From positions 2,820,001 through 2,852,000 of the forward strand of contig OW818675.1 in NCBI GenBank assembly GCA_942493095.1: 32,000 nt of DNA, given 5' to 3'. Below the pieces are notes generated by a model that ran no database searches, was not told the DNA's origin, and worked only from the letters and a program-made list of their open reading frames with translations. Positions 5,592 through 9,841 of this stretch are shown here, in pieces (positions within the stretch are counted from its first letter, which is position 1; each line of letters opens with the position of its first letter). The translations under genes and the position numbers were made by a program. This DNA comes from Candidatus Electronema halotolerans (GTDB lineage Bacteria > Desulfobacterota > Desulfobulbia > Desulfobulbales > Desulfobulbaceae).

Positions 5592-5963
5592 ATCATTCAG
5601 GGCAGATTGCTGAGGTAATTCCCAAATGTCCAAGGCGTTGCCTTGGGCTGTAGAAACTCCAAAGGAGTTTTTGTTCTCAATCACGGCGCAGCGGGCTGAT
5701 GAAGAGGAAGGCTCAAGGAGCACAACTTGGCCTGAAATGGTCAATACTGGGCTGGCACCCATTCAAAGCAGCCGGTTTCGTCAAGTTTCCACGTTTTGCC
5801 GTCCTTGGCAAAATGAGCCATTTTTCAGCTCATTTCTGTGCCGATGATTTTTTTCAGATAGTTGTTGCGGAAGAAGGTCATGTACTTTTGATTTTTCTAT
5901 TTACAGAGTCTGATAGTAGAAGAGTTAATGTCTATTTTTTTGAATTCAAATTTATTAAAATAG

Positions 5964-8201
5964 CTACGAACCGGCTTGATTCCTTATATTAATATAAGGA
6001 AAATTTATGTCTCCTTGACAATTAGAAATTGTCACCCAATGGTTCAATGATTCCTTAGATTCTGCGGTGCTGCAAAAAAATTGCCACGAACAATCCATCC
6101 ATATGCTTTCCGTTATATCAGCTTTATCAATCAAAATCTTCTGGAAATGACAGTCTCTCCAATGACTGCAAATTGCTTTTGCTTGATCAAGCAGGAGCGT
6201 TTGCCCCCGCAGCCCTCGAATCCACCTGTTAGATAATTGCGCGTTTCGTAAATCAACTGTAGTCAGTTCCGGCAATACGCGACCCGATGTAGCCAATGTC
6301 TCAATGATCTCTAACGCCAAATCTGAGGCATCTGACCAAGGTCGGGCCAAGGTCGCGACCAACCGCTCGTTGAGCCGCGCCAGCTCCTGTTCAGCCAGCA
6401 AGAACGTGTTATCACAAATAAATTGCTTGGTCAAGCTGGAAACCGGCTGGTCTATGCGGAACGATTCATCTTCCTGCAACTGCCGCATCAGCCAGCGGCT
6501 GAGAAAATATTCCTGCATGGAAGAATGGGAAAATCCGAAGTTATGCTCGCCGAAACGTACCAATAACGTGGAGGTGCGTAAATCTTTTTCTAAAAGTTGG
6601 CTGTTCTTATAGCTGCTGTATTGATCAGCTAATGCAGGTTGCCTTTGTAGCCAAGCGCAGAACCAGTCGTTGAGTTTGTCAATCTTCCAGAGCTGGGTGG
6701 AATGCTGCCAGAACTCTGCTGCTAAATCACTCAAAAGCTGTTGCTTGTGGCGTGGCTTAATCAAATTTTTTTCCTCATCGCGGCTTAGACAATCCTCAAT
6801 TAAGGCTTGATAAAACCCGGCGGCATTAATTGGTTTACCTTGGCTCTTTAGCTCGCGTAGTTTGGGAAGGATGCGGGATAGTTGGCGGAGAAGAAAAGGT
6901 CGTTCAGCCAAATCTTTCAGATACTTCTCTCTGTTAATAAAGGCGAAAATTTGCTCGGCCTCCTCGCTGCCGAGCAGTTTGGTCAGCAGAGCAAGCATTT
7001 GCTCACTGGAAAAAGGCAGCATCTGTAAGGCGCAGTAGTCGCTGCTGCGCAGACCGCTCCGGTTTAGGCCAAGCAAGAAGCCGTCCATCTGCCGCAACGT
7101 CTCAAAATGATGAGTACGACAGGAGATGAGCACTTTCGCCCGCGCTTGGCCTTCTTGCGGAAAAACCCGCAACAGCTCATTGAGAAACTGGCTCTGCATA
7201 TCTGCGGTGTAAAAAACCAGTTTTTCATCCAAGCCGTCAAAAATGCAAAGCAGCTTGCCCTGCTGGGCCGCCTCAATCAACTCTTTAGCTGTGTACGCCT
7301 CAGCCTGCCCATTCAGACGAAGTACGGTTTCCAGCATCTCCTCCAAAGTCGGCTGGCGGGTCTTGCCATTTACGGTGACAAAGGTCGGCACGTCGCGCAA
7401 ATCAAGGTAAACTGGCTTGGGCAGGTTTGACTCCTGCTGGCAACGTTCAGCCAGCCGTTGGGCAAACATACGGCAGGTGAAGGTCTTGCCCATGCCGTAA
7501 TCACCGAGCAAGGCATAAAGACAGGATTTGTCATCCGTCAGCCAGTCGAGCATGTCAGCCAAGGCTTCGCGGGTGGTGATTTGCTCCTCATCCGCTGCCC
7601 GCAAGTGCCGCTCACTGGCCGTGCAAATCCGTTTCAGCTTACCCTTGGCAGGAATATACTCTTCATCCTCGTACAGCTCTTTCCTGCCGCCCTCCAGCAA
7701 GCAGCAGAGCGGTTTTTGCTTTTCCGCCGCCTGCTCCTGCCGCCGCCGAAGTTCCTGCTGCCGCAGCTTGTCCATCTCCTCCGGCTTGCAGCCCTTGCCG
7801 GGCAAATACTCTTCCGGCAGATAATCCCGATTGGCCCGCCCCGTCACCTGCGGCAGCTCCTTGGGTGCTTCAGCCGAGAAACGCAGCCGGGGCGCGCCGC
7901 CTTTGGCCTTGATCCGGGCCACAGTCAAAGAGCGGAAGACCGCCGCAGCCTCTGGCCTGCCACTCCGCTCCGCCTCCTCAGCCGCTTGGGCCGCACCCGC
8001 CTTGAGCCGGGAAAGAAAACTGCGGCAGGCCCCGTCCTTGTCCTTGCTGCCGGAGAAAAGCAGCTCCGCCAGTTCGGCCCGTCCTATCTCGGCCTGCGCA
8101 TCCAAATGCGGACTGAGAGTGTTGAGATTGCGGCTGTCAGCATTGCCCAGCTCGCCGGAGCTGATCAGCAGGTCAAAGGCCCGCAGCACCTGATCAAGCA
8201 T
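5964..8201 (-). CDS. NACHT/STAND P-loop NTPase with C-terminal pentapeptide repeats and an unassigned ~230-aa N-terminal region
   Basis: Walker A is GDYGMGKT (nt 7482-7505) and Walker-B-like is LLCIFDGLDE, followed by a long helical region. The C-terminal ~100 aa read as 5-residue repeats (LRNAQ LSNRW IRGLR GQTLL LDQAK AICSH WRDCH FQKIL IDKAD). The start is taken as ATG at 8201 (MLDQVL) behind GGAGGA, 8 codons inside the track ORF. Confidence 0.8.
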   Translation of the reverse strand: MLDQVLRAFDLLISSGELGNADSRNLNTLSPHLDAQAEIGRAELAELLFSGSKDKDGACRSFLSRLKAGAAQAAEEAERSGRPEAAAVFRSLTVARIKAKGGAPRLRFSAEAPKELPQVTGRANRDYLPEEYLPGKGCKPEEMDKLRQQELRRRQEQAAEKQKPLCCLLEGGRKELYEDEEYIPAKGKLKRICTASERHLRAADEEQITTREALADMLDWLTDDKSCLYALLGDYGMGKTFTCRMFAQRLAERCQQESNLPKPVYLDLRDVPTFVTVNGKTRQPTLEEMLETVLRLNGQAEAYTAKELIEAAQQGKLLCIFDGLDEKLVFYTADMQSQFLNELLRVFPQEGQARAKVLISCRTHHFETLRQMDGFLLGLNRSGLRSSDYCALQMLPFSSEQMLALLTKLLGSEEAEQIFAFINREKYLKDLAERPFLLRQLSRILPKLRELKSQGKPINAAGFYQALIEDCLSRDEEKNLIKPRHKQQLLSDLAAEFWQHSTQLWKIDKLNDWFCAWLQRQPALADQYSSYKNSQLLEKDLRTSTLLVRFGEHNFGFSHSSMQEYFLSRWLMRQLQEDESFRIDQPVSSLTKQFICDNTFLLAEQELARLNERLVATLARPWSDASDLALEIIETLATSGRVLPELTTVDLRNAQLSNRWIRGLRGQTLLLDQAKAICSHWRDCHFQKILIDKADITESIWMDCSWQFFCSTAESKESLNHWVTISNCQGDINFPYINIRNQAGS

Positions 8202-8364
8202 CGTTCCTCCGCAGCAGCTTGGCAATGGCGTTGATCAGCTCGGCTATCTTGTCCGCATTGAAAGCTGCGCTCATAAAAAGCAGCAGTCCGGCCAGCAGCG
8301 TCAGACGGGCAAAGGTCAAATGCTGAAGAAGATCAGCGGCAAATTGAATAAGCTCGGTTTCCAC
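8194..8364 (-). CDS. 56-aa single-TM mini-protein, translationally coupled to the NACHT gene
   Basis: GTG at 8364 lies 7 nt after AAAGGAGG. The product is METELIQFAADLLQHLTFARLTLLAGLLLFMSAAFNADKIAELINAIAKLLRRNDA, with one hydrophobic helix. Its TGA overlaps the NACHT ATG within ATGCTTGA (8194-8201). Confidence 0.55.
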   Translation of the reverse strand: METELIQFAADLLQHLTFARLTLLAGLLLFMSAAFNADKIAELINAIAKLLRRNDA

Positions 8365-8418
8365 GGCGCGCCCTCCTTTGGCGGAATGTGATCGGCAGAA
8401 CTGCCTGCTTATACTGCA

Positions 8419-8447
8419 AGCATAGCCGCTCCGCCGGTGGAAGGCAA
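8419..8447 (-). promoter_or_regulatory. Candidate sigma-70 promoter for the mini-protein/NACHT operon
   Basis: Read on the minus strand: TTGCCT (8442-8447), a 17-nt spacer, then TATGCT (8419-8424), about 55 nt upstream of the GTG start. Confidence 0.35.
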
Positions 8448-8453
8448 GTAGAA

Positions 8454-8471
8454 TTTTCACGAACGTGAAAA
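8454..8471. promoter_or_regulatory. Palindrome TTTTCACG-AA-CGTGAAAA, a possible operator or weak terminator hairpin
   Basis: Two 8-bp perfect inverted arms with a 2-nt spacer. It sits between the stop of the upstream beta-propeller gene (8496) and the candidate -35 element. Confidence 0.35.
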
Positions 8472-8495
8472 ATGTGAATTACAGAACGATTCGTC

Positions 8496-9401
8496 TCAAT
8501 ACGGCAGCATCACCACCTTGTTCTGCTTGAACAGCGGCACCAGCAAAAGATGACGTTTGGTGTCAAGGCCAAGATCAGCAGGTGACTCCAAATCATCAGC
8601 CAGCACCTTGAAATTGCCGTCTTTGTCCAGCGCATAGAGCGCGGCACCTGCCCAGCTGGAAACAACAAAGCGGCCATCGTCCAGCTTGATCAAACCATCC
8701 AGACTGCCTTTGGGCGGTGTCGGCATGGCGGTCCGCTTCCCGGCAGCATCAATGCTGAACAGCTTGCCTGTGCCAAAGGTGTTCACGACAAGGCGGCCAT
8801 TGTCAGCCCATATCCCGTTCGGATGCCCCATTGCCGCATCTTTGACAATGACCTTCTGCCTGCCGTCCGCCCAAACCTGATACACAGCATCTGCGCCGGA
8901 CGGACTCATGTCAGCCGTCAGACCGCTGTCCGTCACATAGACCGAGCCGTCCGGCCCTGGCGCGACCCCATTGAGAAAGGTGCTGCCATCAATGGTGACG
9001 GATTGCTTCTGCCTGCCGCTCGGCAGCTCGAAAACCTGCACCTGATTGAGATCAGCAACAAAGAGATTGCCGCCTGTCACTGCTGAACCCTTGGGCGCAT
9101 TCAGGGTCACGCCCTCTTTGCTGCCGTCAATCCATTTGAGGTCAGCAACCGTGCCATCAGGTTTGAGCTTGGAAATAAAGCCATTGCCGTCGGCTGCGCC
9201 GGAGCTGCCGTTGATATTGCTGACCAAATAGACATCTTCAGCAGGGTAATATTCCACGGATTCCGGGGTGGCAAAACCAACCTCGCCGACAATGATGCGC
9301 GGCTCAAGTTGGGCGGCAAACGCGCCTGCGGCCCAGAACATGGCGGCAAAAACAGCGGCAAAACTTTGCCTTGCGCCTTTACTCATGCTGTTCATGATCA
9401 T
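8496..9401 (-). CDS. Secreted beta-propeller protein, SMP-30/gluconolactonase/LRE-like or NHL-like
   Basis: Signal peptide (SFAAVFAAMFWAAGAFAAQ). Repeated blade-like segments (GNLFVADLNQVQVF, GSVYVTDSG, GRLVVNTFGTGKLFS, GRFVVSSWAGAALYAL). Confidence 0.6.
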   Translation of the reverse strand: MIMNSMSKGARQSFAAVFAAMFWAAGAFAAQLEPRIIVGEVGFATPESVEYYPAEDVYLVSNINGSSGAADGNGFISKLKPDGTVADLKWIDGSKEGVTLNAPKGSAVTGGNLFVADLNQVQVFELPSGRQKQSVTIDGSTFLNGVAPGPDGSVYVTDSGLTADMSPSGADAVYQVWADGRQKVIVKDAAMGHPNGIWADNGRLVVNTFGTGKLFSIDAAGKRTAMPTPPKGSLDGLIKLDDGRFVVSSWAGAALYALDKDGNFKVLADDLESPADLGLDTKRHLLLVPLFKQNKVVMLPY

Positions 9402-9691: not shown

Positions 9692-9841
9692 CTATATTTT
9701 GATTCCGAGAATGCCAATCACCCCAATCACGATCAGATAAATCGCGACAATGTAATTCAGCAGCCTGGGCATGACGAGAATGGTAATTCCAGCAATAATG
9801 GCAAGCAGATATTGGACAGCAAAATTCAGATGAATCGTCAT
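9692..9841 (-). CDS. DUF3096-like small membrane protein (49 aa, below the track cutoff)
   Basis: ATG at 9841 follows GAAGGAGGGAAGGCC. The product is MTIHLNFAVQYLLAIIAGITILVMPRLLNYIVAIYLIVIGVIGILGIKI. The PRLLNYIVAIYLI..G motif matches my recollection of DUF3096. A terminator follows. Confidence 0.7.
   Translation of the reverse strand: MTIHLNFAVQYLLAIIAGITILVMPRLLNYIVAIYLIVIGVIGILGIKI

Follow-up and report, generated by a model that had tools for sequence, protein, structure and literature searches.

A candidate doubly reduced allele of a two-gene NLR-like module in the cable bacterium Candidatus Electronema halotolerans

Two overlapping genes on the minus strand of Candidatus Electronema halotolerans DNA, at positions 5964-8364 of the 32,000-nt stretch analysed here (contig OW818675.1, positions 2,820,001 to 2,852,000; hereafter the window), encode a 56-aa mini-protein and a 745-aa NACHT protein. 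Our preferred reading, to which we give a probability of roughly 0.55, is that this locus holds a doubly reduced allele of a two-gene, NLR-like (bNACHT) module found in cable bacteria only. Comparison with relatives indicates that the intact form comprises an operator and promoter, a gene for a 55-57-aa peptide and, coupled to it, a gene for a protein of the order NNH6-TIR-NACHT-pentapeptide beta-helix-WD40-short tail. Two of these domains are missing from the window allele; the loss of the WD40 propeller is private to this genome, and the loss of the TIR domain is shared by its lineage. Homologous proteins and genome loci compared here are designated by P and L numbers, respectively.

Proteins of this kind have been catalogued, with effectors or adaptors at the N-terminus and repeat sensors at the C-terminus, and several are antiphage by experiment (bioRxiv 10.1101/2022.07.19.500537). 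Kibby et al. named the NNH domains, defined the D[GAS]hDE signature, and included NNH domains, pentapeptide and beta-propeller sensors, and TIR and PNPase effectors in the catalogue (bioRxiv 10.1101/2022.07.19.500537). A first-pass annotation of the window had described the pair as a candidate defence module of unassigned type. That description no longer fits, because the NNH, sensor and effector domains of the family are all in the published catalogue: the N-terminal 110 aa correspond to Pfam NNH6, and the protein aligns end to end with a catalogued architecture. The sequence evidence thus places it as a reduced member of the NNH6-(TIR or PNP)-NACHT-pentapeptide-WD40 class.

Domain organization of the large protein

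P0001, identical to the window protein, is GCAAIG_12580 of Candidatus Electronema halotolerans, a cable bacterium whose closed genome has been published. Its gene occupies 5964-8201 on the minus strand (ATG 8201-8199, stop 5966-5964). A Walker A motif, GDYGMGKT, lies at aa 233-240 (7505-7482), and a Walker B motif, LLCIFDGLDE, which bears the D-G-L-D-E signature, at aa 317-326 (7253-7224); the corresponding patterns GxxGxGK[ST] and D[GAS]hDE (IFDGLDE, aa 320-326) are invariant across 21 homologues. Pfam NACHT (PF05729) matches aa 230-372 with 32.8 bits against a cut-off of 26.7. The full-length AlphaFold2 (AF2) model, with a predicted local distance difference test score (pLDDT) of 82.7, has NOD2, NLRC4 and NLRP as its top PDB matches (E 1e-13 to 1e-9), and the global template modelling (TM) scores of these matches are low because the other domains differ. 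The Walker motifs and NACHT/STAND layout proposed by the first-pass annotation are therefore well founded.

We detected 54 homologues, mostly of 1000-1290 aa, that combine NACHT, pentapeptide and WD40 regions, many of them also carrying TIR_2 or PNP_UDP_1, with NNH6 at the N-terminus. A 21-sequence alignment gives the shared plan: NNH6, TIR or PNP, NACHT with helical extensions, pentapeptide region, WD40 propeller and a short conserved tail. The window protein follows this plan with gaps. Its first 110 aa (7872-8201) form helices and a beta-hairpin and are weakly winged-helix-like; they score only 19.4-22.4 bits against Pfam NNH6 (PF22737), below the cut-off of 27, while 15/15 N-terminal segments from NACHT homologues match that family, with a best E of 8.6e-27, and L089 reaches 32.2 bits. 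Membership in NNH6 is thus assigned by homology and not by the protein's own Pfam score. A charged linker follows (aa 111-215; 7557-7871), modelled at pLDDT 45-69, at the site occupied by the TIR or PNP effector in relatives. The NACHT NTPase module, with its helical and winged-helix extensions, spans aa 216-640 (6282-7556), and a degenerate pentapeptide-repeat beta-helix spans aa 641-735 (5997-6281).

The pentapeptide region had been read from the letters alone, and it is sound even though Pfam (PF00805) gives no match to the single window sequence at E<=10. Close relatives yield a profile of aa 640-735 that matches solved pentapeptide proteins (Efs Qnr, Np275/276, MfpA, HetL; E 5e-12 to 1e-6), and the AF2 model is all-beta here, with short strands, a 20-residue period and a pLDDT of ~90. 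The first-pass annotation was likewise right that the N-terminal ~230 aa hold no effector signature: Pfam, PADLOC and NCBIfam searches of aa 1-230 returned no nuclease, TIR, SIR2 or protease. Against PADLOC-DB v2 the large protein gave only P-loop-level matches (PDC-S20, BrxD and mad8; E 6e-4 to 2e-2 over ~40 aa), and NCBIfam gave only P-loop-level noise for both proteins of the pair.

Several relatives differ within the NACHT domain itself. P0002 (L002 ~7040-7310), P0003 (L086) and P0005 (L087) carry an internal tandem duplication of ~85-100 aa over the Walker-B segment (window aa 262-347), the second copy having a degenerate Walker B (FFKGLDKML or VLWELEGVEAML); the duplication is missing from the window gene and from P0004. 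The idea that P0002 is an assembly chimera was discarded, as P0003 and P0005, from other contigs, have the same duplication.

Loss of the WD40 propeller

Where is the sensor of this protein? The pentapeptide stretch had been taken for a terminal sensor or scaffold, but in all orthologues a WD40 propeller of ~330 aa lies C-terminal to it, and this propeller is deleted here. Residues 1-762 of the orthologue P0004 (Ca. Electronema sp. JC, 1134 aa, 64% identity) align with window aa 1-735; beyond this point P0004 has a WD40 propeller (212 bits) without counterpart in the window protein. Neither the 745-aa protein nor any downstream frame contains a WD40. What remains is a stump: by blastn, positions 5885-5741, past the stop codon, match the 3'-terminal ~145 nt of the full-length L001, L002 and L086 genes at 84.7-89.8% identity. 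Between the two, ~960-990 nt of the relatives' genes have been exchanged for ~120 nt of AT-rich filler (5886-6008, minus strand, GC ~0.32), which replaces ~1 kb of WD40-coding DNA and supplies the last ~10 codons and the stop of the present gene. The stump (5741-5885, minus strand; ..IIGTEMS*KMAHFAKDGKTWKLDETGCFEWVPAQY*) is out of frame with the present open reading frame (ORF) and is pseudogenised, a TGG having become TGA at 5827-5825 within the conserved ...ELSWKMA... motif. The 3' stump shows that the absence of the propeller is a secondary loss.

The deletion appears local and genuine. In L002 the NACHT gene is followed by a BrnT/BrnA pair and then by RlmN, and since RlmN also follows in the window the two loci are syntenic. 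An identical 745-aa product is found in a second, independent assembly of public reads (two contigs; sources ncbi and lgn), which argues against an assembly artefact.

The surroundings of the deletion are variable in other ways. The BrnT/BrnA toxin-antitoxin pair of L002 (9492-10026) is absent from the window, where 118 nt stand instead (5710-5592), a second local indel at the same variable spot. A perfect 18-bp AT-rich palindrome, CCTTATATTAATATAAGG, unique in the window, lies at 5982-5999 within the filler, exactly at the deletion junction, and may have been left by the event that produced the deletion. The last ~145 nt (window 5885-5741, L001 9269-9405, L002 9342-9486, L086 4595-4739) are 84-90% identical between loci that are otherwise 70-78% identical, and encode a conserved tail, ..IIGTE(L/M)SWKMAxFAKDGKTWxLDExGCFEWVPAQY. 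This nucleotide conservation could mark a tether domain, an anchor for recombination or a signal embedded in the sequence.

Loss of the TIR domain and selection on the gene

The first-pass annotation had also suspected a novel effector domain at the N-terminus. The family effector is instead a TIR or PNP domain between NNH6 and NACHT, and it has been lost in the Electronema clade. Before Walker A, proteins of the Electronema-like group have 233-245 residues, against 350-430 in the other family members, and the alignment shows the TIR or PNP domain cleanly gone from the group with the flanking segments kept. Pfam finds neither TIR nor PNP in the window protein, which has a linker of ~25 aa in place of a ~160-aa TIR-containing insert. 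The direction of change is given by L089, which carries NNH6 (32.2 bits), TIR_2 (27.7 bits) and NACHT and shares 79% identity with P0004 across the aligned NACHT half; its aa 155-317, the TIR_2 domain, have no counterpart in the window protein. Because so close a relative keeps the TIR, the domain is ancestral and was lost within this lineage, by a clean in-frame deletion. The earlier puzzles of a "missing effector" and of the "sensor" are thus both explained by domains that were lost.

Why would a gene without its effector be kept? Among the TIR-less genes the ratio of nonsynonymous to synonymous substitution rates (dN/dS) is 0.09-0.20 at synonymous divergence up to ~1.2, which indicates purifying selection over a long time on a maintained, not decaying, gene. 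An output other than TIR must therefore exist.

The history of the window copy may include exchange with other alleles. Its identity to L002 is mosaic: 92.8% from the region upstream through the small ORF to nt 1040 of the NACHT gene, 70.5% over the remainder, and back at ~90% in the 3' stump and RlmN, with a breakpoint at ~7161 (window 8539-7161 against 7418-6082). GC content falls at the same place. The pattern suggests allele or paralogue recombination in the sensor-proximal half.

A co-translated membrane peptide of cable bacteria

The mini-protein gene (GCAAIG_12585; 8194-8364, minus strand; GTG 8364-8362, TGA 8196-8194) has its GTG 7 nt downstream of the ribosome-binding site AAAGGAGG (8372-8379, minus strand). 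The octamer ATGCTTGA holds both the ATG of the large gene and the TGA of the small one, with GGAGGA at 8210-8205. This arrangement, with its two ribosome-binding sites and overlap, is exactly as the first-pass annotation described it. The small ORF precedes homologous NACHT genes at ~9 loci, in cable bacteria only, and in at least 8 related loci it is open, equal in length and tightly coupled. In every cable-bacterial locus with a visible 5' end of the NACHT gene such an ORF stands directly upstream, with 55-57 aa in L001/L004, L002, L084, L085, L086 and L089 and as a diverged 48-aa version in L087. The ORF and the NNH6-NACHT gene share 8 or 4 nt or lie 3 nt apart, and GGAG-type ribosome-binding sites of the ORF are kept in relatives.

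The 56-aa protein consists of an amphipathic helix, a hydrophobic core of ~17-19 residues (R-LTLLAGLLLFMSAAF-NADK) and a second amphipathic helix, so that the earlier reading of one hydrophobic helix between amphipathic segments stands. Its Kyte-Doolittle maximum over 19 residues is 1.8, within the range of 1.8-2.3 among relatives, and an uncharged run of 17-18 residues, with R/K before and FNA(D/H)K after, is invariant in all 7 sequences compared. Hydropathy thus predicts that it is probably a single-pass membrane peptide. The family is tiny: its ~9 loci all lie beside cable-bacterial NNH6-NACHT genes. Word-indexed searches gave 4 matches with the small protein and 1 with P0060, an exhaustive profile search of 1.84 billion representatives gave 2 matches only, and a metagenome scan with the same profile added one further locus, cut by a contig end. 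Pfam, NCBIfam, PADLOC and PHROGs hold no match to the small protein, and Pfam and PHROGs none to its relatives. Overlapping small hydrophobic ORFs were not found outside Electronema in 80 genome loci, nor did the other fetched family loci, from other taxa, have such a small ORF before the NACHT gene.

Is the peptide itself under selection, or does the ORF merely serve as a translated leader that sets NACHT translation by coupling, its product functionless? In keeping with a leader, the invariant C-terminus RRND(A) is encoded by the NACHT ribosome-binding site and start codon CGGAGGAACGATG, so that conservation of the RR is explained at the RNA level; the dN/dS of the small ORF exceeds that of the NACHT gene (0.4-0.55 vs 0.1-0.2); and a tiny lineage-restricted family fits de novo birth between a promoter and a gene. 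Yet a length of 55-57 aa is held at up to ~45% protein divergence, as are the charged-hydrophobic-FNADK pattern and the amphipathic flanks. Pairwise dN/dS values of 0.38-0.55 are clearly <1, and codon position 2 is the least variable, with 14/54 variable sites against 31-32 at positions 1 and 3. These features point to a genuine conserved gene, and we regard a mere leader as very unlikely.

A second alternative is the one favoured at first pass, a working two-gene abortive-infection module in which the pentapeptide beta-helix senses infection and the 56-aa protein kills by disrupting the membrane. The small ORF is indeed real, conserved and always tightly coupled, its product has a hydrophobic core (19-residue maxima of 1.8-2.3), and the TIR-less genes, long kept by selection, need a non-TIR output. 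Short repeat-less family members are known, and bacterial NACHT proteins are antiphage with varied effectors. As a replacement for the lost TIR, however, the peptide was rejected, since L089 carries both the peptide gene and TIR. Moreover, the propeller of every orthologue is deleted here with a dead stump left behind, and a sensor-less, possibly constitutive NACHT protein paired with a lethal peptide should be counter-selected, yet the deletion is tolerated. The peptide matches no effector or holin family of PADLOC, PHROGs or Pfam, and the locus lies outside any defence island. We therefore consider a working module of this design quite unlikely in the window. The narrower proposal that the membrane protein is an effector of the family keeps its support from conservation, coupling and the need for some non-TIR output, and is weakened by L089 in so far as it invoked replacement.

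A candidate operator and the NNH6 domain

Cable-bacterial loci share a conserved segment of about 130 nt before the small ORF even though the genes farther upstream differ: the window has an SGL-like gene there, L002 one for a histidine kinase, and L001 and L086 have XseA. In L002 (5662-5720, against window 8539-8496) only the last ~45 nt of the SGL-like gene are left, with the histidine kinase gene before the remnant, so the upstream flank has been rearranged too. The conserved segment contains a candidate sigma-70-type promoter (8419-8447, minus strand), TTGCCT (8447-8442) and TATGCT (8424-8419) with a 17-nt spacer, whose hexamers and spacing are kept in six cable-bacterial loci. It matches the consensus at 8/12 positions only, which is why a strict sigma-70 and terminator scan of 5600-8700 missed it; that scan returned no promoter and no convincing terminator.

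Just upstream of the promoter is a perfect palindrome, TTTTCACG-TT-CGTGAAAA (8454-8471, no strand assigned), a candidate operator for which TTTTCACGTTCGTGAAAA is the proposed NNH6 target sequence; a further half-site, TTCACA, lies beside it (8478-8473). The motif TT[TC]AC[AG]-N2-3-[CT]GT[AG]AA is found 55-125 nt upstream of the first gene in the closer NNH6-NACHT homologues, carried by cable bacteria, a Desulfobacteraceae metagenome-assembled genome (MAG), a Spirochaetaceae MAG, three Arcobacter genomes and a Campylobacterota MAG; the copy in a Bathymodiolus symbiont departs from it by 1 mismatch. Sites of the form TTTYACR-N2-YGTRAAA lie at L002 5730-5747, L003 5538-5555, L007 2698-2715, L010 3923-3940, L015 3938-3955 and L089 387-410. 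In 731 kb of locus DNA the motif has 12 matches, 11/12 of them at the upstream position, and in the window it occurs once, against 0.01 expected by chance. It is missing from more distant NNH6-bearing relatives of GC-rich genomes. These data suggest that NNH6-NACHT genes of at least four phyla share an upstream operator, and the simplest binder of a cis-element that accompanies a gene from phylum to phylum is a protein of the same module.

The candidate favoured here is NNH6. Its AF2 model (pLDDT >90 over aa 1-110) is built of helices and a beta-hairpin, and fold searches of PDB and BFVD give ArsR/MarR-type and phage helix-turn-helix (HTH) proteins as best matches, all of them weak (E>0.1, TM 0.3-0.45). 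NNH6 segments searched against Pfam at E<=10 showed no recurrent HTH family. In L003 a stand-alone 121-aa NNH6 gene (5609-5974) stands directly behind the operator and before a TIR-NACHT-WD40 gene. Upstream ORFs in L040, L056, L067 and L071 have TIR-like sequence at their ends and run 4 nt (ATGA) into the NACHT gene. N-terminal modules thus seem to be separate coupled genes at times, and so able to act in trans. Among PDB sequences the NNH6 profile (A2 positions 31-70) had a single match, to a bacterial STING chain (6wt5_A, 40 aa, E 0.005), which was treated as chance. From the co-occurrence and the fold likeness, autoregulation by NNH6 through the operator is a reasonable proposal.

Taken further, the same evidence leads to a third alternative, in which the locus is a STAND-type transcriptional switch: a winged-helix NNH6 binds the palindrome, NACHT controls its own operon and the dose of the peptide, and TIR is an add-on in some lineages. 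The operator travels with the gene over at least four phyla and is otherwise almost absent (11/12 matches); NNH6 is always the extreme N-terminal domain, and in L003 it is a separate gene directly behind the operator; the top fold matches are winged HTH regulators and phage HTH proteins; and winged HTH domains are listed among bNACHT adaptors by Kibby et al. (bioRxiv 10.1101/2022.07.19.500537). On the other hand, every fold match is non-significant (E>0.1), no HTH family is recognized at the sequence level, distant NNH6-bearing relatives have no motif, though their sites may have diverged, and the palindrome could serve an unrelated host regulator. The idea also overlaps the doubly reduced bNACHT allele that we favour rather than excluding it, and as a separate explanation it seems unlikely.

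A model for the module

How might the intact module work? From established STAND/NLR biology, the WD40/beta-helix end in the intact relatives would bind a trigger, and the NACHT module would then oligomerise with nucleoside triphosphate (NTP), clustering the N-terminal parts. Where a TIR is present, its clustering would destroy NAD+ (an NADase output). In the TIR-less clade the remaining candidate outputs would be NNH6 and the co-translated membrane peptide. NNH6 may be a winged-helix-like adaptor that binds the conserved operator and so provides autoregulation; on oligomerisation it may engage or release the membrane peptide, which would act at the membrane.

Under the doubly reduced reading, the window allele probably does not signal, because the sensor of every orthologue is missing; it is most likely a recent relic, at best a constitutive remnant of low activity. 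That the WD40 deletion is tolerated speaks mildly against the peptide as a lethal effector held in check by the sensor alone.

Several points weigh against this reading. The allele keeps its promoter, small ORF, 745-codon frame and two ribosome-binding sites intact, and may still be expressed and active. Repeat-less short forms of the family exist (P0020/L074, ~810 aa), so loss of the propeller need not abolish function, and deletion of the sensor leaves some STAND proteins constitutively active, not dead. The proposed link between NNH6 and the operator is drawn from co-occurrence and weak fold matches (E>0.1, TM<0.45) with no HTH match at the sequence level, and the membrane insertion of the peptide is predicted solely from its hydropathy.

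A bolder version, which we hold to be doubtful, makes the 55-57-aa peptide the membrane executioner or anchor of an NLR-like switch in cable bacteria, which grow as multicellular filaments: clustered NNH6 would leave the operator, de-repress the operon and gather the peptide into a membrane lesion. If this were true, it would be a self-amplifying pair of an NLR and a mini pore-former needing no enzymatic effector, and NNH6 would represent a new output domain that binds both DNA and peptide and that NLR-like genes of several phyla have in common.

Relation to known systems and significance

The closest full-length relatives, at 30-49% identity, are NNH6-TIR-NACHT-pentapeptide-WD40 proteins (P0006 of Desulfobacteraceae 4572_130, P0011 and L089) and their PNP variants (P0030 and P0033). 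They are collinear with the window protein over NNH6, NACHT, the helical extensions and the pentapeptide region, and the closer ones share the operator. They differ in having their own TIR or PNP, the WD40 propeller and the conserved C-tail, all gone from the window allele, and the small ORF is missing outside cable bacteria.

The window gene resembles the bNACHT proteins of Kibby et al. in its NACHT domain with a D[GAS]hDE Walker B, in its N-terminal adaptor/effector position, in its C-terminal repeat sensor of the superstructure-forming type, and in being an accessory gene that varies between close strains. Unlike them, the window allele is without an enzymatic effector and a terminal repeat sensor, and it has a coupled mini membrane-protein gene, of which the accessible text of that paper makes no mention. 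In the accessible literature that was searched, we found no experimentally tested member of the NNH6 clade, nor any mention of the coupled membrane-peptide gene or of the cross-phyla operator.

Other likenesses are of architecture or working principle. Apaf-1, TEP1 and fungal HET-E/D share with the ancestral form of the gene a STAND NTPase followed by a WD40 sensor and the expected ligand-triggered, NTP-dependent oligomerisation, but their outputs are CARD and HET, the window WD40 is deleted, and the likeness is one of architecture, not orthology. The MalT, AfsR and GutR class works in a similar way only, joining a DNA-binding domain, a STAND NTPase and a repeat sensor; the window palindrome and the weakly winged-HTH-like N-domain suggest a comparable regulatory output, although those proteins are not of the NACHT clade, have LuxR or SARP DNA-binding types of their own, and DNA binding by NNH6 is only putative. 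The transmembrane effectors of CBASS and Pycsar and the type I toxins are short hydrophobic proteins encoded beside a sensor. Here too the resemblance is one of working principle, as no sequence or profile similarity connects them with the window peptide.

Why should a damaged allele matter? Bacterial NLR-like proteins are evolutionary relatives of animal and fungal NLRs, and what is at issue is signalling by non-enzymatic N-terminal domains. The locus offers three leads. First, a clade long without its TIR effector is still selected, so an unrecognised output must exist. Second, a lineage-specific mini membrane protein is always co-translated with the TIR-less clade. Third, a palindrome travelling across phyla with NNH6-NACHT genes suggests that NNH6 may bind DNA and act in autoregulation. 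The window copy, its sensor deleted, is the least useful one for study, yet it is a natural sensor-less allele for comparison. It also shows fast remodelling among close strains by domain loss, mosaic recombination and internal duplication.

Gene neighbourhood

The first-pass annotation saw an acquired accessory module among housekeeping genes, with aberrant composition, and the surroundings agree. The flanking genes encode RlmN, an SGL-like protein, FKBP and an ABC permease. The GC content of the module is ~0.59-0.69 in the 5' part of the gene, 0.46 in its 3' half and 0.32 at the junction, against 0.55-0.58 in the surroundings. Rfam and tRNA scans of the window gave no matches. A 49-aa DUF3096 membrane protein (Pfam 60.5 bits) is encoded at 9692-9841 on the minus strand and has no apparent tie to the module. 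The longest RlmN ORF (ATG 5762, 410 aa) overlaps the WD40 stump (5762-5600). Its homologue in L002 is annotated with 367 aa, so RlmN probably begins further downstream, near MHQQTDL....

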